Origin: a virus
Lineage: Duplodnaviria; Heunggongvirae; Uroviricota; Caudoviricetes
Length of the DNA: 38,746 nucleotides
Direction: 5' to 3' (one strand)
IMG/VR virus record: IMGVR_UViG_2648501400_000020
Span: 1-38,746 of that record
Of the stretch, positions 1 to 23,338 are shown piece by piece. Every line of letters begins with the position of its first letter. The stretch's first letter is position 1. The position numbers and the translations under genes were made by a program. The notes beneath the pieces are model-generated. The model was not told where the DNA came from. It made no database searches and saw only the letters and a list, made by a program, of their open reading frames with translations.

Positions 1-657
1 TCAGGGGGCCAGTCTACTGAAAGATATCGGCAGGGTGATATTTACAGGTGAGCCTAATGGCCCTGATGCTGATATTCCCATTTGAATGATGGTTCCATCA
101 GGCAATTTTCTCCAGCGATTAGAACTCGGATTTCTTTTCCAGGCTGACATATCCGGTATCTGATTTTCTCCTGTACCCACATCCCTTTTCGCCGCTTCTC
201 CCAAACCAAGGTATGTGAGAATGTCAGCAATAGTCTTTTTCCCGATAATGTCACGGCCAACAGAAGTCAAATCAGTCTGCGCAGCTGTATCATTTCCAGT
301 GAAATACGGGAGTTTATTTGCACCGGTTTCCAGCCCAGCTAATGCCGTCAGCGTGGCATCAAGGGCCTGGAAATCCTTCCCAAAAGCGGTTCCCATTTTG
401 GAGATAAACCCGTTCAGGTCACCATCATCAAGCACGTCCAGCCCACTTTTGTTGGCTGTGTACTGCGCAAGCGCTGCCGCAATAAAGCTGGCCTGTCGAA
501 TAACCTTATTGACTTGCGCACTGGATGCTTTCCCTGCTGTAAATCCGGATAAAAGCGCAGGCAACGCTTCCCATTCCTCCTGCGACATAACATTAGCATT
601 TCGATCCGTTGCAAACGCTTTAAAGTCATTTTTCGCCATCAGAGTAATACTCCCCAT
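1..657 (-). CDS. Tail fibre protein, N-terminal part only (ORF runs off the window edge; likely start at the ATG at 639)
   Basis: Contains the stretch TLTALAGLETGANKLPYFTGNDTAAQTDLTSVGRDIIGK typical of P2 H / lambda Stf-type side tail fibres; no stop codon before position 1. Confidence 0.75.
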   Translation of the reverse strand: MGSITLMAKNDFKAFATDRNANVMSQEEWEALPALLSGFTAGKASSAQVNKVIRQASFIAAALAQYTANKSGLDVLDDGDLNGFISKMGTAFGKDFQALDATLTALAGLETGANKLPYFTGNDTAAQTDLTSVGRDIIGKKTIADILTYLGLGEAAKRDVGTGENQIPDMSAWKRNPSSNRWRKLPDGTIIQMGISASGPLGSPVNITLPISFSRLAP

Positions 658-1319
658 GCTCCTACATCAAAACCACTGATGAATTCGTTATCCATATCAA
701 AACCAAAAAATTTTGAGCCTTCCGATGGGGTTTCCACCGAAGGTGTTTCAATGCCACCCGCCCACACCCCGGCGGCTTTTACTGTGAGATATCCCTGTTT
801 AATTGCAGCAATTAACTCACGCGATACATCTGAAATATCAGTATCAGGAAAGACCCAGACCGATATAGTCATGTCCTGGTTATCGACTATCTGCATTCGC
901 AGCCCGGATCCTGCTGTTGCCGCGTCAAGAATTGCCGGAAGCGAATCATTCCGTCCGTCCCAGTTATTAATCGCAATCTTCGCTTTAAGAATGACACGAT
1001 AAGTTTCATCGCTGAGATACATGTATCCGGAATCAGGATCATATGGCCCCTGCCATACCCCCTGATCATATCCAAGCCCGTCGGTATCCCAGCTGAAATA
1101 GACACCTGAGATAGGCTGGCGGACAACACGGCTACGTCCGATCCACAATCCCAGAATGTCAAGTTGCACACCAACCGCAGAGTCAATATCAAATGCAGTA
1201 ATCAGCCCTCTGGTGGCAGCCGCAACATCAATAAGCGGCCGGGTCATCAGATCAACATGTGCAAGAAATTTAGGTTTGGTGGCGTGGTAGTTCGTGATTA
1301 GTTCGGTGTATTTGCTCAT
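639..1319 (-). CDS. Baseplate/tail protein (Mu gp48-like position, directly upstream of tail fibre)
   Basis: 226 aa ORF tightly packed between baseplate J-like gene and tail fibre; assignment by position and composition only. Confidence 0.45.
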   Translation of the reverse strand: MSKYTELITNYHATKPKFLAHVDLMTRPLIDVAAATRGLITAFDIDSAVGVQLDILGLWIGRSRVVRQPISGVYFSWDTDGLGYDQGVWQGPYDPDSGYMYLSDETYRVILKAKIAINNWDGRNDSLPAILDAATAGSGLRMQIVDNQDMTISVWVFPDTDISDVSRELIAAIKQGYLTVKAAGVWAGGIETPSVETPSEGSKFFGFDMDNEFISGFDVGAWGVLL

Positions 1320-2515
1320 GACTCCACCGTTATAACGATATTTTCCGGGGTACAGGACGCAGATTCGTTGTATCTGATATCAATGTTTGATGACGACAAA
1401 GCCCCCGGGGATTTCCCAATCGTCAGTTCCTGAATATCGTAATAGCGTGCATTCCCGCCACTCACCACGCCAAGATTCGCCGGTGAGTAAATGCGACTTA
1501 AAAGGACCGAATCACCGATCGTAAGACTATTGATATAGTCGGAAATAGCCTGCTGGATCTGCTGCCCTATCTGTGAGGTATAACCCGTAAAAACTTTTAA
1601 TTTAATCCGGGCATAAACAGGCACATCACTGGAACGCGAGAATTTGATTACATGGGGATTGCCGTATTTATCCGGAACCGTAACGGATGTTGTACCGTGA
1701 GTGGCTGTACCCTGGCCTTTATTCCCTCTGATAGCCTGAGCAATATCCGTCACATCACCGCCATCCACAATTACAGCAACAGAGTGTGGCGGTAACCCGT
1801 TACCGTCCTCCGAACCAGTATCGTTTTCATAGAGTTTGTGGCGGGTTACACCGGTAACATTAGAAACAGCACCATCCAGTGCTTCAAATGGGGTTATTGA
1901 TGGCAGCGCAACACTCTGCGACTGGCGGATACGTAACTCCGCGTCAGTTTCTGCCGGAGTGCCCACAGTAGCTGCAGCAGGATTGGTTACCGAAACCCAG
2001 CCACGGGTTGGCGTATTAATTTCAGTGATAGTTCCAGCCAGCGCCGCCACTGCACCACTGACGGAACATGTTGCGGTCGCCATCACTGTACCATCCACGC
2101 CGACCACCACTGAAGCAGGCAAACGCCATATCACATTATTACTGTCTTTCACGCTGCCATTAATGATGGTTGTTCCGGCAGTTCCTGTAAGAAGCAAATC
2201 AACCGTAGAATTCGTCGCGCCTTTACGTGAAATACCATTTATTTTCACGTTACTGGTCAGTGCAGCCCCATAGCCGGTTGCCGGTGAAAAACAGTTGTAG
2301 ACAGTTATCGCCATATTATTGGCATCATGAATCGCCAGCGCCATCAGAGCCACCATCTGGCCGTCTTTGCTGTCCGGTTCGAGGTAGGCATCACTGCCAT
2401 AAATCTGCTGAAAATAGCTAATCAGGGTGCTGAGTATCGTCTGATAATCAGGCGCACTGATCCCCTCCGCGGTTACCTTTGCAGATAAACCGAGAGAATC
2501 AAGGTTCAGAGCCAT
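1316..2515 (-). CDS. Baseplate J-like protein
   Basis: 399 aa, overlapping stop/start coupling with neighbours, position in baseplate cluster; resembles Mu gp47/P2 J-type baseplate proteins. Confidence 0.65.
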   Translation of the reverse strand: MALNLDSLGLSAKVTAEGISAPDYQTILSTLISYFQQIYGSDAYLEPDSKDGQMVALMALAIHDANNMAITVYNCFSPATGYGAALTSNVKINGISRKGATNSTVDLLLTGTAGTTIINGSVKDSNNVIWRLPASVVVGVDGTVMATATCSVSGAVAALAGTITEINTPTRGWVSVTNPAAATVGTPAETDAELRIRQSQSVALPSITPFEALDGAVSNVTGVTRHKLYENDTGSEDGNGLPPHSVAVIVDGGDVTDIAQAIRGNKGQGTATHGTTSVTVPDKYGNPHVIKFSRSSDVPVYARIKLKVFTGYTSQIGQQIQQAISDYINSLTIGDSVLLSRIYSPANLGVVSGGNARYYDIQELTIGKSPGALSSSNIDIRYNESASCTPENIVITVES

Positions 2516-2868
2516 TACGCCTCCGATGTAACAGTCGTTATTCCATAGAGAGTGTCGATTTCAGCGGAAAACATGACACGTCGGGTCGTGGTATCCACCG
2601 TCGTATTGAAAGAGAGGATTGATTTAACGCCCCGCGTTTCGAGGATGCGCTTACGGATCGCCAGGTTGTAGGTTTCCGGCTTCTGCTTACCGAGTACGGA
2701 CTGGATCCACGGAGTCCCTTCGGTGGTGTCTAGAAACCATTGCCCATACCACAATTCGAATCGCGTTTTTACCGCCTGCGCCACGGCCTCCGGTGAGTTA
2801 ATCAGCCAGGTGTCATCACCGCTGCCAAAGGTGTAATCGCCATCGGCGTCTTCACGTCTGTATCGCAT
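2515..2868 (-). CDS. Small baseplate protein (gp46/W-like position)
   Basis: 117 aa ORF translationally coupled between spike-like and J-like genes. Confidence 0.4.
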   Translation of the reverse strand: MRYRREDADGDYTFGSGDDTWLINSPEAVAQAVKTRFELWYGQWFLDTTEGTPWIQSVLGKQKPETYNLAIRKRILETRGVKSILSFNTTVDTTTRRVMFSAEIDTLYGITTVTSEA

Positions 2869-3620
2869 CAGTTTACCCCATCGGTATTGCTTCCACCGCG
2901 CTGAACACCGCCATGAGTGTGCGTATCATCGATTGGCTTGCCGTTAGCCTTCACGCTACCCAAAAACTCAACAGCACCAGTGATTTTTGAAGCCACACCA
3001 GAAACCACAGACCCCACCATGCCCCCCAACCAGGTTAACAGGCCATGAATGGTTACTTTCTCAGAAAAATCAACCAGAGGGGCAACCACATCAAGACCAC
3101 CCGGAGCGACAATTTTAATTTTCCTGGTATCAGGATTAAGCTCAAAATAGGTGCTACCGTCGTCACTACGCAACTGTGTGGCACTGGTATTAATACCGCT
3201 AATCTTTCTCGCCTGCGACTGGGGACCGACAATACAAAACGCATCCGATAAATCATGCATTCTGTCATCGACCGGCTCCTGTATCCCACCGCTCTGCCAC
3301 CAGAAATCAATACAACGATCGGCAAAAACGACAAGACACTCATCCCCGGCTTTAACCGGAAAAGTCAACGTACAGCCTCCGCCGCGCGGAAATACCACTG
3401 GCACATCCACCAGCAACGGGTAATTTTTGGTAATGCGGTTACCGTCGTTATCCTTTTCAACCGAACGGATAGCTGGCTGCACAACCGCCGTCACCGCGTC
3501 GGGCTCGAATGACTGAACAATGCCAGGCAAGGCGACACGGATCTGGTTCTTTGTTGTTTCCCGTTCAGATTTGAATGTTTCGGCAAGGTCGCCGCTGCGG
3601 GTCTGGTCAGATACTGCCAT
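2868..3620 (-). CDS. Baseplate spike/assembly protein (V/gp45-like)
   Basis: 250 aa, Gly/Val-rich C-terminal region, position upstream of gp46/J-like genes. Confidence 0.5.
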   Translation of the reverse strand: MAVSDQTRSGDLAETFKSERETTKNQIRVALPGIVQSFEPDAVTAVVQPAIRSVEKDNDGNRITKNYPLLVDVPVVFPRGGGCTLTFPVKAGDECLVVFADRCIDFWWQSGGIQEPVDDRMHDLSDAFCIVGPQSQARKISGINTSATQLRSDDGSTYFELNPDTRKIKIVAPGGLDVVAPLVDFSEKVTIHGLLTWLGGMVGSVVSGVASKITGAVEFLGSVKANGKPIDDTHTHGGVQRGGSNTDGVN

Positions 3621-3639
3621 TTAGTAGGCTCCAGAAAGC

Positions 3640-3663
3640 AAAAAACCCGCCGGGTGGCGGGTT
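3640..3663 (-). terminator. Rho-independent terminator downstream of moron gene 3680..3919
   Basis: Plus strand reads aaaaaa-cccgcc-gggt-ggcggg; on the minus strand this is a GC hairpin followed by a T-run. Confidence 0.6.
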
Positions 3664-3679
3664 CATTATTGAAGTTTCA

Positions 3680-3919
3680 TTACTGCTTGTTTGCTTCTAA
3701 CGCTTCAGCTATTCGGCGAAGATACTCATTGTTTTTAAATGAAACCATGATGCACTCAAAGAATATTCGGCAAGATACAGCACATAACAAAAGCACTAAA
3801 GCGCCAGCAGCCTTCCCATTAACAAACGTTATAATGGCGGCAACAACCAGAAGTAACATTGTGATGCCATACAGAACGTTGATGATTTTTGGAGTTATTA
3901 ATTTATCAAATCCGAACAT
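3680..3919 (-). CDS. Small two-helix membrane protein (moron, function unknown)
   Basis: 79 aa; two hydrophobic segments then charged tail KNNEYLRRIAEALEANKQ; ATG with AAGGA Shine-Dalgarno; own promoter and terminator. Confidence 0.5.
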   Translation of the reverse strand: MFGFDKLITPKIINVLYGITMLLLVVAAIITFVNGKAAGALVLLLCAVSCRIFFECIMVSFKNNEYLRRIAEALEANKQ

Positions 3920-3955
3920 GCGACAAATTCCTTATCGTGAAAGTAGAAGTATCAC

Positions 3956-3983
3956 ATTATAATTACGAGTGATTAATCAACAA
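3956..3983 (-). promoter_or_regulatory. Sigma70-like promoter for moron 3680..3919 (-35 TTGTTG, 16-nt spacer, -10 TATAAT)
   Basis: On the minus strand TTGTTG (3983-3978) and perfect TATAAT (3961-3956), about 35 nt upstream of the ATG at 3919; overlaps the 3-prime end of ORF 3973..4314. Confidence 0.4.
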
Positions 3984-4314
3984 TCTTTTTGCATGGAAAG
4001 GAGCCGATGATTTTCGGCGCATCCATGCTGTTCTGCAGCAGTTGCACATTCAGGAATCGCGTTTCGGTACCAGGGCGACGAATGTATTCAAAGCCGTAGT
4101 TGTTACCGTCTTTGGCTGGCATAAGCCCCATGTCTACTTTCAAACCATTGGTACCCAGTTCGGTGATTTTTTGAGAGGTAACTCTTTCACCGTTGATTGT
4201 CGATAACTCGCCCTGGTTTGCAACCATAGTGTAGCCACCGCATTTAACCGTGAAGCCATCCGCCCACGCGCTGCACGCAGAAAAGACAGCTAACCGAAAA
4301 ATAATCCCCCTCAT
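3973..4314 (-). CDS. Secreted/periplasmic protein with N-terminal signal peptide (moron, function unknown)
   Basis: 113 aa; hydrophobic N-terminus with AWA-DG cleavage-like site; two Cys; inserted between baseplate genes. Confidence 0.5.
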   Translation of the reverse strand: MRGIIFRLAVFSACSAWADGFTVKCGGYTMVANQGELSTINGERVTSQKITELGTNGLKVDMGLMPAKDGNNYGFEYIRRPGTETRFLNVQLLQNSMDAPKIIGSFPCKKIVD

Positions 4315-4317
4315 TGC

Positions 4318-5379
4318 TCATCCCCTTTGCAAAGCCGATTGCGTATACAGATCCGCCGCGCTACGCGCTTCGCACATCATATCCATGTACCACGCCTGGC
4401 CCCTTGTGTCGCCAGTGTACATAATCCCGCGCACAATATAAACGCCATCCATTGCGATGCTGGCAGGCTGCGATGTGGTGCCGCTGAGCGTAATATTTCC
4501 GTCCGTGTTCTGGTCGGTGATCTGACCACCAGCCATAGCGATATCGTTGTTCGACAACGCGGTGCGATATACAGAAGCCTGATCCAGCTGAATGAGCCCG
4601 TTAACCCGGATGTTCGGATTAATGAGCGCACGGACGTTTACGCCGTTACCGATGGTCTGCTGCGGCATGCCAATAAGCCCGGTAGCACTGTTGAGCACAA
4701 TCGCTTCGTGAACATATTCGTTATTCGCCACCATCTGGCGTTGACCATCCACGAATTGCCATGTTGCGCCACATTGCCCGGCTACGTTATCCATAAGATG
4801 CCGCGTCATGCCAAAGAGCACCCGCCCCCGGGGGAATACAGTCGCAGGCATTTCAGGCGTCAGGCCTTCGGTCGCGCCTTTGGCTTCAAAGTCTTTCATC
4901 AGCGCACGGTTTACATCAGCGACCGTGTAACCGGCAGCCAGCGTCTGTGAGGTTATACTGGTGGCAAAAGCCAGATCAGTATCGGCTGCCTGAATCAGGA
5001 CGTAGGAATCAACCGGACTGTCTTTTCCTGTGACCGAGTAGCGAATTTCACCGCTGAAAATCAGTCCGTAGTTGCGACCATCACTCTGGCCCACGTCCGC
5101 CGCGTCAACTTCCCGCACTGTCCCGACGTCGCTTGCCGACACTTCCGGCGCGATACCGTCGTAACCCGCAATCAGACGCACTTTCGAAAACTCCTGCCCG
5201 GTAATTCGGTTCACAGTATCTGCCGAGAGGTTATAAATTTTGATAGTCCCTACCCGGGACGCGCTGCTGATGTTGAACCAGTCGATCGTAAAGGTGACTT
5301 TGAAATCACTTAGCTCAATTCCCTGACCGTTCCCGTCCACAAGCTGCAGCTCGAAATGTCTCATCCAGTTCTGTGACAT
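4318..5379 (-). CDS. Baseplate hub/tail protein (gp44-like position)
   Basis: 353 aa ORF in tail cluster between tape measure-side genes and baseplate genes. Confidence 0.45.
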   Translation of the reverse strand: MSQNWMRHFELQLVDGNGQGIELSDFKVTFTIDWFNISSASRVGTIKIYNLSADTVNRITGQEFSKVRLIAGYDGIAPEVSASDVGTVREVDAADVGQSDGRNYGLIFSGEIRYSVTGKDSPVDSYVLIQAADTDLAFATSITSQTLAAGYTVADVNRALMKDFEAKGATEGLTPEMPATVFPRGRVLFGMTRHLMDNVAGQCGATWQFVDGQRQMVANNEYVHEAIVLNSATGLIGMPQQTIGNGVNVRALINPNIRVNGLIQLDQASVYRTALSNNDIAMAGGQITDQNTDGNITLSGTTSQPASIAMDGVYIVRGIMYTGDTRGQAWYMDMMCEARSAADLYTQSALQRG

Positions 5380-5381
5380 GC

Positions 5382-5687
5382 TTACTCCGTTGATACCAGT
5401 AAATGGCTGCGACTGCCCAGGTCAGTTTTCGTGGGATAATCCTGTGTGTTGTCATCGCAGACCACCAACAGCTTAAAACCAAGCCCCATACAGGCGTACT
5501 GCGCCAGCAGATCAGCGCCAGTGACGAGAGGAATACCGGAGATTACCGGCTCTCCTCTGTCGTTCTGCAGGTCCATAATCCAGTAAGGATCTCGCCATAT
5601 GATGCTAATCCGCCAGGTGACACCGCTCAGGACGATACTGAACTGCTGGTTATCCGCTGTCAGCGGAATTTCCTGAATTGTCATCAA
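5382..5687 (-). CDS. Tail-associated hypothetical protein
   Basis: 101 aa ORF, coupled to neighbours in tail operon. Confidence 0.35.
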   Translation of the reverse strand: MMTIQEIPLTADNQQFSIVLSGVTWRISIIWRDPYWIMDLQNDRGEPVISGIPLVTGADLLAQYACMGLGFKLLVVCDDNTQDYPTKTDLGSRSHLLVSTE

Positions 5688-6271
5688 CCGCCCCCCAGTA
5701 ATGACGCCACGTTACCCGTGATGCTTTTCAGCAGTGAAGTATCTGGAGGCTTTGTGGTTTTGTTGCCGCTGTTCTGTACCGCCGACGTGCTGGCCCCTTC
5801 CTTCATGTTGGTTTTATCAGCGACAGTGATCTGCTGTGTCCGGGAGATAAGGACCTCCCTCAGGGTGAGGACGGCGGACAGGACGTTTTCGGTTGTCTTG
5901 TCCGTCGTCACTTCCAGCGCCCGGATCAACATGTTGCTGTACAGCCGTTTACCGGTTACCACATCGAAGGGGATACGGCTTTCCTGCAGATCCAGTAGCT
6001 CCTGATACGTCTGCTGAGGACTCAGGCCGAGCAGGCCGGTAGCCGTCAGGTTACTGGCAAAATCCAGCAATGCGCCGCCACCGGCGAAACCAACCTCCAT
6101 CACCACTTCTGACGGTTTTTTATAGGCATGATCAGCGACAGCAGCCCCGACCTCTACCGGATGCTCTGTTATTTCAAGCATATCTGTATGCTTCTCTGAA
6201 ATAACAACACTGGGAACAATCATTCCTATTTTTCTGCTCTGCTGATGAAAAAGTGTAGAGAGAATATCCAC
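5684..6271 (-). CDS. Tail-associated hypothetical protein
   Basis: 195 aa ORF immediately downstream of tape measure gene. Confidence 0.35.
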   Translation of the reverse strand: MDILSTLFHQQSRKIGMIVPSVVISEKHTDMLEITEHPVEVGAAVADHAYKKPSEVVMEVGFAGGGALLDFASNLTATGLLGLSPQQTYQELLDLQESRIPFDVVTGKRLYSNMLIRALEVTTDKTTENVLSAVLTLREVLISRTQQITVADKTNMKEGASTSAVQNSGNKTTKPPDTSLLKSITGNVASLLGGG

Positions 6272-8280
6272 TAACCCACCCTCACCTGATTACTTCGCAT
6301 GACCTGAGCATTTGCAGACTGTTGCCGACGTGCAACCTCATTACCGACAGCGTGCGGATCTCCGCCACCGTAAATGTGGTAAGTATTTTGCTGATTAACC
6401 TCTGTCATTTTGCCACTAATTCCCGCCACGGCAGCCTTATTAATCAGCCCTCGGGAATAGATATTTCTTCCATTTTCATGCTGGATAATGCTGCTCATCA
6501 ATGCTGACATGGTTTGCGGATCGCTCATATTCAGGGCAGCCCGGGGATCCACTCCCAGTCGTTGCGATACAGCCCTGATATACGCAGTTGTGTTGTTATT
6601 ATCAGACGCAGGTGCCCAGGTAGAGATAATTTTCTCCACACTGTTTATTCCCCGTCCGGCGTACAGCATTAACTGACGAGCAAGAGCCCGTAATCCATCA
6701 AAAGCAGTTTCAAATCTGGCAAATCGCCCGCCCGGGCGTTCAAGAGAAGCCCCTGCCTGACCAGCAAAATTAAGGTTTCCCGGATTGTTATTCCGTTCTC
6801 CTCGTTTCGTAGCCTGTGCATGTTGTTCCGGCTCATCATCACCAAACCAGCCGCGTACCGTCCGGCCCACACTGCGGGGATCGAATCCCCAGTGCTCTTT
6901 AATCCAGTCGGCAGTACTGTTAGCGCTGTCTGTAACCATCGGCATCGCTGACGGATTTTCGCTGCCCTGATTAAGTATCTGTTTGCCGATGCTGACGGCA
7001 TCAGCCCAGCGGCCATCTTTGATAGCGTTGAGCAGGTCAGCGATCATGTTCAGCATTTTGCTGAATTCGCCCATCTGGTCGATGAAGTTGCTGAAATCCC
7101 ACTTCAGGGACCATGATTTGGGGTCAATATTGAGCAGTTTCGCCAGCGCTTTCACCAGGTCGTTAACGGTCGTTTTAAGGTCACGAACCATCTTCAGCGC
7201 GGCATCGACCTCCGGTTTCCACTTGCCCCAGTCAATCAGGCTGTCGCCGCCTTCCTTCCAGGTCTGATAGTCCTCCCACAGGAGGGCAATACCCGCCGCC
7301 AGCGCGGTAATGAGGCCAATCGGCGACATCCAGAACGTACTGTTCAGAATGCGCAGCGCAATCGTCAGTGCGCCAAACAGCGAGATCAACTCCCGCGTTT
7401 GCTTATCCAGCGATTGCCACCAGGTGATAAGGCCTGATGTCCCCTCAATCAGTCTGAAGAACAGCCGCCCGATAATATCCCCGAGCGCCAGAATGCCTTT
7501 TATGGCTTTCGTCAGGGTCTGCTCGATACGAGGGAAGTTGTCCAGGATATGGCGGCGCAGGGTGTCCAGCGAACCCGCAAGCCCCCCCGCAAGATTAGAG
7601 CCGATTTTGTCACGGGCCATGCCTGCCATCGCGCCAAACTCACGCAGGGAGGTCATAAATTTGTTGGAGCTTCTGGCCGCCTCGTCAGCATTGAAGCCGA
7701 TAGCTTTCGCCATTGCGCTGTACTGCCCGGAGAAGCCACCCACACCCCGGCGCATAGCCATCAGGGTATTTTCGTCAATGCCCAGCATCTGCGCATACTG
7801 GTTAGCCCGGTAATACGGCATGCTGCTGAGTTTCTGTCCAACGCCCGTAAAGATAGCGGCCATGTCACGCATGTTACCGCTGGCATCACGGGTCTGTACG
7901 CCCAGGCGATTCAGAAAGCCTTCTGCTCCGGGATTATTACGAATAAACCGGGAGAGGTTTTCCAGAGAAGATCGCGCAGCGTCCACGCTGCCGCCAACCT
8001 GCGAAACCGCATAGCCAATAGACTGAATTCCCTGGACTGTCGCGCCAGTGCGCTGTGACGCCCAGTAAAGATTATCCAGACCAGAGGCGATCTTAGCCGT
8101 GAAGGCCACCACGGACAGCGCAGCTCCTTCGACGGCCAGCCCCATTTTGATGACATTTGCAGTTGTACCGGCGAGGACAGAACCGAATTTTTTCGCTCCT
8201 GCATCATCCACACTGAAGCCAAGCGAGACGAGGAAATCTTTAATAGTCTCGGCGTTCATTATCCTCTCTCCATTTCTCAA
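6271..8280 (-). CDS. Tail tape measure protein with distinct C-terminal globular domain
   Basis: 669 aa; Ala/Gly/Leu-rich helical core with hydrophobic segment WMSPIGLITALAAGIALLW; sits after tail tube/chaperone genes. Confidence 0.75.
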   Translation of the reverse strand: MRNGERIMNAETIKDFLVSLGFSVDDAGAKKFGSVLAGTTANVIKMGLAVEGAALSVVAFTAKIASGLDNLYWASQRTGATVQGIQSIGYAVSQVGGSVDAARSSLENLSRFIRNNPGAEGFLNRLGVQTRDASGNMRDMAAIFTGVGQKLSSMPYYRANQYAQMLGIDENTLMAMRRGVGGFSGQYSAMAKAIGFNADEAARSSNKFMTSLREFGAMAGMARDKIGSNLAGGLAGSLDTLRRHILDNFPRIEQTLTKAIKGILALGDIIGRLFFRLIEGTSGLITWWQSLDKQTRELISLFGALTIALRILNSTFWMSPIGLITALAAGIALLWEDYQTWKEGGDSLIDWGKWKPEVDAALKMVRDLKTTVNDLVKALAKLLNIDPKSWSLKWDFSNFIDQMGEFSKMLNMIADLLNAIKDGRWADAVSIGKQILNQGSENPSAMPMVTDSANSTADWIKEHWGFDPRSVGRTVRGWFGDDEPEQHAQATKRGERNNNPGNLNFAGQAGASLERPGGRFARFETAFDGLRALARQLMLYAGRGINSVEKIISTWAPASDNNNTTAYIRAVSQRLGVDPRAALNMSDPQTMSALMSSIIQHENGRNIYSRGLINKAAVAGISGKMTEVNQQNTYHIYGGGDPHAVGNEVARRQQSANAQVMRSNQVRVG

Positions 8281-20810: not shown

Positions 20811-21170
20811 TTACTCCTTATGGGCACCGAACTTGTTACCGATGACCCTCATTGCCGCACCACGAATAGCATCAACACCAATCAGCCCCACCCCACCACC
20901 AATGGCAACAGAAAGTGATTTAGGCCATCCGACATACTCAAGCGCGGATGCAAAGGTCAGCGTCAGGGCACCACAGAGCAAAATCTCAAGCGTTTTTCGT
21001 TTCCAGCCCCCACCACCGCCAAAATAGGCGATGCGCAAACCAGCCATAACGATCGACATAATCACTGCACCCAGCGGTGTGTCTCCACGCCACCAGCTCT
21101 GAAACAACTCCAGCCAGTCCGGCCAGGTATTTGGGTTATGAGGCATTTCATCATCTCTCACCTCGCACAT
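20811..21170 (-). CDS. Holin
   Basis: 119 aa with hydrophobic membrane segments and charged C-terminus, immediately upstream of endolysin. Confidence 0.55.
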   Translation of the reverse strand: MCEVRDDEMPHNPNTWPDWLELFQSWWRGDTPLGAVIMSIVMAGLRIAYFGGGGGWKRKTLEILLCGALTLTFASALEYVGWPKSLSVAIGGGVGLIGVDAIRGAAMRVIGNKFGAHKE

Positions 21171-21641: not shown

Positions 21642-22223
21642 TTAAAGCTGCATCAACCTTTCCACCAGTTTATCTCTGCGAACAACAAACCAACCATTGG
21701 CTCTCGCCAGTTCCAGCCATGACTCAAGGGAAATAACAATATCATCATCCCGTAACTGAATTGTGGAAACAGTGACACCGCCTCGCTGATAACAGAGAAC
21801 TCGCGTGTCGTAACTTTTCTGGCATGAAACTGGCGCTGACGGATCCTTTTGTCTGAAATAGCAGTCTTCCAGCTTTTCGAACACATCCCACGCCTGATCG
21901 GTTTCGAGCATTTTGGCATGACGGGCTGCTCCGCGTTCTGTCCAGAGGATGAGGGAGCGGGCTTTCGGGGAAATTTGTAACCCTCTTAAAGATGGTTGCA
22001 AATTTTGTGAGTAGTTTAAAGCTACCCGCAAATTTTTCAGGGCATCGCCAGCCACTTTGAAAAAATGCTTTCCTTCAATAAAGCGCTCAGCATTTCTGGC
22101 GTAGTTATTTTGAATGTTCTTAACTTCAGCACCGTACAACTGCGCCAAAAGTTCGGTGGTAATAACAGGAATCTGGTTATGGGTGATCGGGGAGAGAGTT
22201 TCAACAGAAATTTGAGTTGTCAT
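21642..22223 (-). CDS. ORF6N-domain protein (Rha/antirepressor-like regulator) inserted between Q and lysis genes
   Basis: N-terminal segment VITTELLAQLYGAEVKNIQNNYARNAERFIEGKHFFKV resembles the ORF6N/KilA-N-type DNA-binding domain of phage antirepressors. Confidence 0.5.
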   Translation of the reverse strand: MTTQISVETLSPITHNQIPVITTELLAQLYGAEVKNIQNNYARNAERFIEGKHFFKVAGDALKNLRVALNYSQNLQPSLRGLQISPKARSLILWTERGAARHAKMLETDQAWDVFEKLEDCYFRQKDPSAPVSCQKSYDTRVLCYQRGGVTVSTIQLRDDDIVISLESWLELARANGWFVVRRDKLVERLMQL

Positions 22224-22496: not shown

Positions 22497-23051
22497 TCAA
22501 CAGACAGTTTTTAAATACCCGGAAGAGAATGCATCACGCATCGGCAGATAGAGCATATATTCAGCAAGATTTAGCCATACATCTACCCGACTGCAGCACG
22601 TCCGAAAACACCACTCAGGGTGTGCATCATTTAGCAATTCAGCCATTTTGCGCTTACTCATCCCCCGCCCTTCATATCTTTGCCGGAGGATACAAATCAA
22701 TCCTGGGTGTTCTGCCAGCACTTCACTAATCACCCGATCAATGCATAACGCCTCTGCATCAGTACAATGCACCAGCCAGCTTTTTTGCTTGCCGTTGATC
22801 ATATCCCGCAAAAAAGCCTCAAGTTCAGGTTTGTCCAGACCTGCTTTTTTCATCCTCCGGAGCGCCTCATTAATTGCCGTTTTTGTTAGCTTTTTAGAGG
22901 TCAGCAACTGGTTAAACATATTTCCCGTCTTACCGCCGCCAATATACGACCAGCGCCCCCACATGCGCAGTTTTCCCTGAATCCAGACACTTTCCAGCGT
23001 GGTGAGACGAAGGTGTTCCCCGCTTTTGCCTGTATTCGTTGGGTAAATCAT
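22497..23051 (-). CDS. Late-gene antiterminator (Q-like); start taken at internal ATG 23051 coupled to upstream stop
   Basis: Cys/His-rich basic protein in the canonical position between nin-type genes and the lysis cassette; ATGA overlap with upstream gene. Confidence 0.55.
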   Translation of the reverse strand: MIYPTNTGKSGEHLRLTTLESVWIQGKLRMWGRWSYIGGGKTGNMFNQLLTSKKLTKTAINEALRRMKKAGLDKPELEAFLRDMINGKQKSWLVHCTDAEALCIDRVISEVLAEHPGLICILRQRYEGRGMSKRKMAELLNDAHPEWCFRTCCSRVDVWLNLAEYMLYLPMRDAFSSGYLKTVC

Positions 23052-23338
23052 AAATAACCTTCCTTTCTCCAGATTTCTTGTGTGCGAAAAACACCTTCTG
23101 CATGCATCAGGCGTAATTCTTCTTTGGTGTAATCGCTGGTTTTTACCCGCCCGTCGATTAAATCGTGGCATGAGCTACAGGCAATCGCTGCCTGCATATC
23201 GTGTGGTTTTGTCGCTGTTCCGCACGTCCCCGCCAGCCTGTAATGCGCCAGCACAGAAGTTTCGGGATTGTGATTGCAGTAGCCAGGAATTCTGACGGTG
23301 CACATCTGCCCCCGCGCCGCTTTACGTAAATCCACCAT
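23048..23338 (-). CDS. DUF1364-type putative nuclease (YbcO-like)
   Basis: 96 aa with Cys/His cluster (CTVRIPGYCNHNPETSVLAHYRL...CSSCHD), typical nin-region gene just upstream of Q. Confidence 0.6.
   Translation of the reverse strand: MVDLRKAARGQMCTVRIPGYCNHNPETSVLAHYRLAGTCGTATKPHDMQAAIACSSCHDLIDGRVKTSDYTKEELRLMHAEGVFRTQEIWRKEGYL

Follow-up and report, generated by a model that had tools for sequence, protein, structure and literature searches.

Why does a tailed phage carry two small genes that look unlike any virion component in the middle of its baseplate operon, and do these two genes belong together? The question arises from the IMG/VR virus record IMGVR_UViG_2648501400_000020 (Caudoviricetes), whose 38,746 nucleotides were analysed as a single stretch, called the window below. 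Between a baseplate hub gene and a baseplate spike gene, a first open reading frame (ORF1) encodes a predicted exported protein and a second (ORF2) a predicted membrane protein with two helices. An earlier note on this DNA had described the two as a moron cassette with a promoter and a terminator of its own, a moron being understood here in the Juhala/Hendrix sense restated in PMC3594210. Both reading frames, the TTGTTG-16-TATAAT motif and the terminator are indeed found where the note placed them, and its naming of the flanking genes as hub-like and spike-like agrees with their profile and motif matches (Table 1). Its two-gene cassette is another matter: ORF2 has the marks of a true moron, and ORF1 is a fixed gene of the lineage that occurs with at least 28 types of cargo and also with none. 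We favour, with somewhat better than even confidence, an arrangement in three layers, namely a fixed ORF1, an exchangeable slot that here holds ORF2 as a moron of the DUF4282 family, and a terminator that belongs to the phage backbone, together with the expression pattern and the functions proposed further below.

The evidence that carries this answer comes first from the slot, the interval between ORF1 and the spike gene, which was surveyed in 88 loci (labels such as L089 denote individual related loci compared with the window). The slot ranges from 61 to 1844 bp across these loci and its contents fall into 29 clusters, that is, at least 28 cargo types and an empty state. Two loci (L089 and L094) are empty, with ORF1 followed by 61-63 bp that hold just the terminator and then by the spike gene; in these relatives lacking the insert, a comparison that the earlier note had proposed, ORF2 is gone and ORF1 stays. 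The last two to three codons of ORF1 vary with the type of cargo, with junctions in codons 111-113, and the protein ends in ...CKKIVD beside DUF4282 and in ...CKKVAG, ...CKKVDG and others beside other cargo. Because these last codons track the cargo, the exchangeable segment runs from about codon 111 of ORF1 to the terminator, and the conserved 3' end of ORF1 and the terminator are the obvious arms for homologous exchange.

The cargo itself is diverse. The commonest, in 31 of the 88 loci and in seven sequence clusters, is a highly diversified gene pair encoding ~243-266 aa and then ~123-142 aa (L051, L050, L059, L066, L103, L064 and L074, where the ORF1 homologue at ~3501-3839 and the spike gene flank the slot). 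The small partners share the pattern ISRAYYxMYH ... R-x4-DY; the pair has no Pfam match and only a weak match to the PADLOC model HEPN_IX (E ~0.009), and may be an undescribed, fast-diversifying defence or toxin-antitoxin pair. Elsewhere the slot holds PD-Lambda-1 (9e-85, with a T5orf172/MUG113 domain), the toxin YafO (4e-17) with a 192-aa partner, or a three-gene set whose last protein is PD-T4-9_C-like (1.4e-7); loci with defence or toxin cargo are L113 (a 408-aa reading frame), L023 (3264-4254), L006 (4447-5627) and L104. Further occupants include a P22-antirepressor-like gene, DUF2335, DUF4236 and several small membrane or secreted proteins. As such, the interval between hub and spike reads as a cargo hot spot inside the baseplate operon, newly mapped here and of a kind that is already well known; a limited literature search found no description of it, and the paper on Tai tail-assembly interference concerns a different locus. 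The earlier proposal of an accessory-gene site with the layout of an autonomous moron holds for ORF2, in whose slot sibling prophages carry PD-Lambda-1 and YafO. In one locus (L085) the occupant is a 121-aa secreted protein with cysteines near both ends (MKKTVFLLLALLSSNAFA...FKCGD...KTCTKI) and a layout like that of ORF1; it was considered as an ORF1 paralogue and set aside, as hhalign gave a probability of 21% over the signal peptide region only.

ORF2 matches PF14110 (DUF4282) at 41.1 bits (gathering threshold 27, E 2.7e-10) over residues 2-71, and the same domain is present in all ORF2 homologues found (n=87) except one fragment. Hydropathy gives two hydrophobic helices, and AlphaFold (predicted local distance difference test, pLDDT, 85) places them at residues 10-33 and 37-78 on either side of a three-residue loop, with a predicted topology of two cytoplasmic ends and a short periplasmic loop. 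The family conserves the motifs FDKLITPKI, R51/F54-E55 and FKNNEYLRRI. The guanine-cytosine (GC) content of the ORF2 cassette is 38% (0.39 at third codon positions, GC3) compared to 54% for the hub gene, 51% for the spike gene and 48% for ORF1 (GC3 0.54), the base composition of ORF1 being near that of the backbone. A 419-bp block recurs at 98% identity in a divergent prophage backbone, that of E. coli CFS3292, downstream of an intact ORF1 homologue that is only ~25% identical to ORF1 of the window; besides the promoter-like site, the DUF4282 gene and the terminator, the block holds the final 25 codons of window-type ORF1, which are a non-coding remnant there. Moreover, DUF4282 homologues of 45-66% identity occupy unrelated positions: just 3' of the tape-measure gene in Klebsiella siphoprophages and the Edwardsiella myophage GF-2, after a holin-lysozyme-spanin cassette in a Pantoea prophage, and in the equivalent slot after an ORF1 homologue in a Pectobacterium prophage. 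Empty slots, deviant GC content, transfer of the block and homologues in unrelated places all argue that ORF2 is mobile cargo and, judged by this distribution, a true one-gene moron. In GF-2 (L118, 3501-5816) the DUF4282 gene starts at the very next base after the tape-measure stop codon. Behind it a P22 immI-like block with Arc-like regulators and Ant is inserted in the middle of the tail module, and the genes for Dit, plug and hub come only after this block.

ORF1 has a different history. A homologue of 110-113 aa lies no more than 20 nt after the hub gene in all 80 loci retrieved from IMG/VR, and hub-adjacent homologues are also found in four named phages (SEN34, vB_EcoM-606R2, Klebsiella phage GZ7 and Yersinia phage YP3) and as prophage genes in Klebsiella, Pectobacterium and E. 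coli CFS3292. Wherever an enterobacterial relative of the SEN34-like kind has the ORF1 family, the homologue sits directly 3' of the hub gene. The N-terminus has a positively charged n-region, a hydrophobic h-region and an A-x-A site with predicted cleavage after A18, and across the family the signal peptide is variable and hydrophobic with small residues at -3 and -1. This supports the signal peptide proposed in the earlier note, just as hydropathy and AlphaFold support its two-helix membrane protein. The mature protein of ~95 aa keeps C25 and C108 invariant across the family and is predicted to fold as an all-beta, 8-stranded barrel. Ratios of nonsynonymous to synonymous substitution rates (dN/dS) fall from 0.27 in the signal peptide to 0.09 in the mature N-terminal half and 0.05 in the C-terminal half, values low enough to indicate that ORF1 encodes a genuine, strongly constrained protein. 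The family is small and restricted to Enterobacterales, with 701 proteins in a collection of 5.8 billion sequences; an exhaustive hidden Markov model search with the ORF1 profile gave 39 cluster representatives, and large multi-domain matches to immunoglobulin-like or repeat proteins were discarded as probably spurious.

Of the 161 phage records with a hub homologue, 21 have a detectable ORF1 homologue. Hub and spike lie side by side without it in the virulent Salmonella phage birk and in Acinetobacter phage A785.1; in Hafnia phage yong1, which forms plaques, the hub is followed by the gene of a different exported protein and then by only a 3' remnant of ORF1. These absences, together with the export signal, argue that ORF1 is not a baseplate component, and with ORF2 being sporadic they bear out the view that neither protein belongs to the virion. 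Since ORF1 is hub-adjacent throughout its lineage, constrained, and missing from distant phages that share the baseplate gene order, it is best described as an old, non-structural addition that became fixed in the enterobacterial temperate lineage, conserved and not sporadic.

Two assignments for ORF1 were tried and rejected. A lipoprotein resembling the Cor/Llp-type receptor blockers is contradicted by Cys14, which is F, S or G in most homologues, and by the conserved A-x-A, a signal peptidase I site. On inspection, an outer-membrane beta-barrel does not fit ~95 mature residues, which are too few, highly charged, without a C-terminal aromatic residue and with a conserved cysteine pair. ORF1 has no Pfam match at E <= 1, its profile search of the PDB returned only a chance SH2 match (E = 1.4), and a search of viral folds in BFVD was uninformative. 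NCBIfam held nothing useful for ORF1 or ORF2, and when the ORF2 hairpin was compared with the PDB by Foldseek, no match had an E below 4.9. Profile and structure searches, which the earlier note had suggested for both proteins, have thus placed ORF2 in DUF4282 as a hairpin and ORF1 in phrog_3443 as a predicted barrel, and have linked neither to a known exclusion or defence family.

Several public annotations of the family can be corrected. The SEN34 homologue (SEN34_20; L003, 3201-3542) is annotated from an internal ATG and so comes out at 77 aa, whereas translation from the true TTG start gives 113 aa; in GZ7-type Klebsiella phages (L004, 2635-2967) the homologue, with a GTG start in GZ7, is not annotated; and the 'putative exported protein' of ST340-VIM1phi10.1 (L114, ~3520-3864) is annotated in truncated form. 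In yong1 (L119, 1600-2740) the exported protein is gp67, whose probable true start is a GTG upstream of the annotated ATG, giving the signal peptide VNKRTVFLILSLFVPIAVMA followed by APG; the ORF1 remnant there encodes SSMDAPKLIGSFPCKKVPG and then a stop.

The third layer is the terminator. It is the top-ranked terminator-like site in 12 kb, and none of 200 shuffled sequences equalled its folding energy of -16.4 kcal/mol (z = -3.8), which bears out the strong terminator reported directly before the spike gene. It is present in 84 of the 88 loci, with all cargo types and in empty slots, directly upstream of the spike start. Its conserved sequence is ACCCGCC-loop-GGCGGGTTTTTT, then GCTTTCTGGAGCC, in which the stem is kept and the loop varies, and yong1 has a compensatory C-G to U-A change in the stem (CCCGTC...GACGGG). 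By this conservation the terminator is an element of the backbone and was not brought by the ORF2 cassette; a promoter-like site and a terminator are both there, as had been claimed, and the second is not the cassette's own. An Rfam scan of the region found no relevant RNA. Further upstream on the same strand the window encodes a Q-type late antiterminator, ahead of the holin, lysis, terminase, head and tail genes, all on one strand, which makes read-through of the terminator plausible.

The promoter candidate overlaps the last codons and the stop of ORF1 and lies 37 nt upstream of the ORF2 ATG. Promoter-like hexamers, differing in sequence, stand 59-64 nt upstream of the DUF4282 start in the window and in the Klebsiella and Pantoea contexts; the candidate is plausible from its position and not from its rarity. 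The hexamer TATAAT is depleted in the whole window, with 9 occurrences on both strands compared to about 20 expected from composition. For ORF1, a weak promoter-like motif inside the hub gene (TTTATA-17-TACACT, 8/12; window ~4415-4443, minus strand) lies ~127 nt upstream of its start. The motif is conserved across alleles but overlaps the conserved hub peptide GVYIVRGIMYTGD, and coding constraint may explain its conservation; if it were active, ORF1 and the terminator would form a prophage transcription unit.

Set against the moron definition, ORF2 is extra DNA between genes that are adjacent in relatives (L089 and L094), and the whole interval of ORF1 plus cargo is extra in the same sense, hub and spike being adjacent in birk and A785.1. 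The ORF2 cassette also has deviant base composition, and a terminator follows it, though this terminator is a backbone element. From lambdoid late-gene regulation and the moron model (PMC3594210), we infer that in a lysogen the late operon would be silent and the ORF2 promoter alone would fire, with the terminator stopping the ORF2 transcript and so insulating the spike gene and the tail genes downstream. During lytic growth, Q-modified RNA polymerase would read through the terminator, and ORF1 would be made along with the tail genes, since it begins 3 nt past the hub stop codon and uses GTG or TTG starts in many alleles.

What the two proteins do is the weakest step and consists of guesses. 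ORF2, as an inner-membrane protein whose two ends are predicted to face the cytoplasm, could alter a step needed by incoming phages, most likely DNA entry, and so result in superinfection exclusion in the manner of HK97 gp15, T4 Imm or P22 SieA. An anti-phage role is favoured because of the company in the slot, the repeated placement of DUF4282 genes beside tape-measure genes and the inner-membrane location, and prophage-expressed protection against phages at the inner membrane is the most likely function of ORF2. The periplasm of the infected cell or lysogen might be where ORF1 acts, for instance by protecting that cell or the progeny against attack by tail tips. Periplasmic protection, by Spackle-like or PliC-like action or by masking of a receptor or tail-tip target, is an attractive but weakly supported idea.

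Several findings weigh against this reading and have to be set beside it. The promoter had been called near-consensus, which is overstated: the -10 hexamer is perfect and the -35 hexamer matches at only 3/6 positions, for which reason a consensus scan did not list it, and TTGnnn-16..18-TATAAT, whose single occurrence in the 38.7-kb window is the ORF2 site, is expected 0.8 times by chance. ORF1 has no convincing promoter of its own and may therefore lack expression in the lysogen, and its predicted fold is a generic small barrel. ORF1 alleles do not co-vary with tape-measure C-terminal, spike C-terminal or hub alleles and show no diversifying selection, which speaks against ORF1 inhibiting the tail tip of its own phage in an allele-specific way. 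Neither ORF1 nor ORF2 matches any PADLOC defence model or, by sequence, a solved structure. ORF2 gave no BLASTP alignment with HK97 gp15 or T4 Imm (hhalign probability 0.1%), and ORF1 aligned with T4 Sp by BLASTP over 5 residues at E = 9. The invariant residues of DUF4282 lie in the cytoplasm or within the membrane and the periplasmic loop is variable; with the chromosomal homologues described next, this makes a general membrane or physiological role of ORF2 as plausible as exclusion.

That role is the core of the strongest alternative, in which ORF2 is a small membrane protein captured from the host. As a fitness gene of lysogenic conversion it would modify host membrane physiology, whether stress tolerance, transport or envelope signalling; otherwise it would be a neutral passenger. 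DUF4282 genes occur in ordinary chromosomal neighbourhoods in Franconibacter and in the AP025685 genome, homologues in non-phage contexts being 59-65% identical and lying beside LysR regulators, acetyltransferases and iraP; the cytoplasmic position of the conserved motifs and the missing PADLOC match speak in the same direction, and a literature search found no mention of DUF4282. As the family has no known function, membership in it says nothing on mechanism. Against capture of this kind stand the repeated position of DUF4282 genes beside tape-measure or tail-tip genes in three unrelated tail modules, and the PD-Lambda-1 and toxin genes that the same slot houses elsewhere. We regard this alternative as possible, if on the doubtful side.

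Less probable, and in our judgement unlikely, is that ORF1 is a periplasmic inhibitor of cell-wall hydrolases of the PliC/MliC or T4 Spackle kind, which would act on superinfecting phages with the same tail type by neutralising their spike or the muralytic domain of their tape-measure protein, and so protect lysogens or infected cells and prevent lysis from without. PliC/MliC lysozyme inhibitors gave no sequence or profile match to ORF1, other unrelated barrels scored higher, and their signature motifs were not seen in ORF1 by eye. An equally improbable and more sweeping version of our own reading would make ORF1 an undescribed family of exported beta-barrels kept with the hub gene, a periplasmic tail-tip guard analogous to T4 Spackle with an unrelated fold, and would make the ORF1 3' end and the terminator a docking site for defence cargo swapped by homologous recombination, including DUF4282 as a DNA-entry blocker.

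More remote again is an ORF2 that acts as a holin-like or abortive-infection effector, depolarising the membrane or lysing the cell early when triggered. Its two transmembrane helices and cytoplasmic ends resemble class II holins, as do its 79 aa and charged cytoplasmic C-terminus, the Pantoea gene follows a lysis cassette, and the conserved R51 and E55 lie inside the second transmembrane helix. However, ORF2 matches no Pfam holin family, the prophage comes with a lambda-family holin (PF05106) of its own, expression of a holin from a constitutive-type promoter would kill the cell, and chromosomal homologues exist; we consider this very unlikely. The least credible alternative, a single functional cassette of ORF1 and ORF2 acquired and expressed together as a toxin/immunity pair or as a counterpart of the T4 Sp and Imm exclusion pair, can point to the adjacency of the two genes in the window, in 16 IMG/VR loci and in a Pectobacterium prophage and to periplasmic and inner-membrane locations that mirror Sp and Imm, but it is largely refuted by distribution: ORF1 and DUF4282 occur independently (which also disposes of the toxin/immunity pair offered in the earlier note), DUF4282 lives without ORF1 in Klebsiella, Pantoea, GF-2 and chromosomal contexts, the transferred block holds only a dead 3' remnant of ORF1, the two genes differ in GC content, and neither resembles Sp or Imm in sequence.

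The preferred three-layer arrangement, with ORF2 as the moron, can be compared with systems that are already understood. HK97 gp15 is a superinfection exclusion moron (Cumby, Davidson and Maxwell, PMC3594210). Like ORF2, it is a single gene for a small inner-membrane protein placed among the tail genes of a temperate coliphage; by the HK97 annotation a putative promoter precedes it and a terminator follows it, and it adjoins the tape-measure gene, as the DUF4282 genes of Klebsiella siphoprophages and GF-2 do. It differs in having 62 aa and one transmembrane helix, whereas ORF2 is a two-helix hairpin of 79 aa whose terminator is the backbone's. The T4 proteins Imm (83 aa, inner membrane) and Sp, or Spackle (97 aa, periplasmic), are close in size and location to ORF2 and ORF1 (113 aa); unlike them, ORF1 is predicted to be all-beta, and the inheritance of ORF1 is independent of that of ORF2. 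T4, for its part, is a virulent phage in which Imm and Sp are early products. Similarly, the antiviral hotspots of prophages and satellites, as far as they are described where Rousset et al. 2022 is cited in PMC13043305, likewise have a fixed position, conserved flanks and diverse cargo, and in sibling prophages the hub-spike slot holds a validated defence system, PD-Lambda-1, and toxin genes, as such hotspots do. It is distinguished by lying within the baseplate operon of a SEN34-like myovirus and by its edges, with the 3' terminus of a gene for an exported protein on one side and an intrinsic terminator on the other.

The analysis therefore maps a previously unremarked cargo hot spot in the baseplate operon of a prophage family of E. 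coli, Klebsiella and Salmonella. Because the slot already has validated defence genes, its other occupants are cheap and well-defined candidates for new anti-phage or lysogenic-conversion functions, notably DUF4282 and the frequent, highly diversified gene pair (~250 aa and ~130 aa); outside the slot, ORF1 completes this set of testable candidates. A further question is why a tail module maintains a periplasmic protein and a terminator in mid-operon. No new principle is involved, morons and hot spots in tail regions being well known.

Table 1. Features of the hub-spike region and related genes, in window coordinates
Feature	Position	Strand	Basis or remarks
Tape-measure protein gene	6271-8280	minus	
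Dit-like protein gene	5684-6271	minus	
Pam3_gp18-type plug gene	5382-5687	minus	
Baseplate hub gene, 353 aa; upstream boundary of the region	4318-5379	minus	phrog_196 'baseplate hub' 6e-89; PF22759 E217_GP41 5e-5
ORF1, 113 aa, exported protein	3973-4314	minus	phrog_3443; 'STY1065/STY2022 family' or 'secreted protein' in some records
Sec-type signal peptide of ORF1, residues 1-18, A-W-A then D	4261-4314	minus	alignments of homologues
Transferred block, 419 bp	3629-4047	minus	98% identity in divergent prophage backbone, E. coli CFS3292
Cargo segment, here the DUF4282 moron	3665-3984	minus	about ORF1 codon 111 to just upstream of the terminator; GC 38% vs 48-54% in flanks
Sigma-70-like promoter candidate, TTGTTG (3983-3978), 16 nt, TATAAT (3961-3956)	3956-3983	minus	sequence motif
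Shine-Dalgarno AAGGAA for ORF2	3928-3933	minus	read from sequence
ORF2, 79 aa, DUF4282 predicted inner-membrane helical hairpin	3680-3919	minus	PF14110, phrog_12129
Intrinsic terminator, 9-bp GC-rich stem, 4-nt loop, T6	3637-3664 (stem 3643-3664 + T-run)	minus	immediately upstream of the spike ribosome-binding site
gpV-type baseplate spike gene, 250 aa; downstream boundary of the region	2868-3620	minus	PF18352 7e-44, Apex motif
Q-type late antiterminator gene	22497-23171	minus	PF06576 2e-106, PF06530 6e-6

On the minus strand the order of genes is tape-measure, Dit-like, plug, hub, ORF1, ORF2, spike, sheath-initiator-like, baseplate J and DUF2612 wedge. The identical arrangement is found at 98-99% identity as a prophage in E. 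coli chromosomes, for example in the O26:H11 strain 97-3250 (NZ_CP027599, with the exact cassette at 1,407,066-1,407,305), where ORF1 and ORF2 are annotated as 'hypothetical protein / DUF4282 domain-containing protein'. The prophage family is present in 333 of 5426 complete E. coli genomes (~6%), including enterohaemorrhagic E. coli O26, O111 and O55, and also in Klebsiella and Salmonella. The nearest named phage group is that of Salmonella phage SEN34 (Brunovirus), a temperate myovirus with lambda-like regulation (PMC5261728); the SEN34 paper holds no proteomics and no moron analysis.

The tail-tip module is highly mosaic. Compared with loci L034-L113, the C-terminal half of the spike (window 2868-3317) has two deeply divergent alleles, of ~97% and ~35% identity, and the tape-measure C-terminus (window 6271-7020) has several, and these reassort freely by recombination, among themselves as well as with the hub and the ORF1 allele. 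In the vB_EcoM-606R2 group the hub gene is split into two reading frames (L001, 3626-4690), by a frameshift or stop or by a sequencing error. A further classical accessory-gene site of the prophage lies between the Q gene (22497-23171) and the holin gene (20811-21170), where the window carries an ORF6N-domain (antirepressor/KilA-N-like) gene (21642-22223, minus strand).

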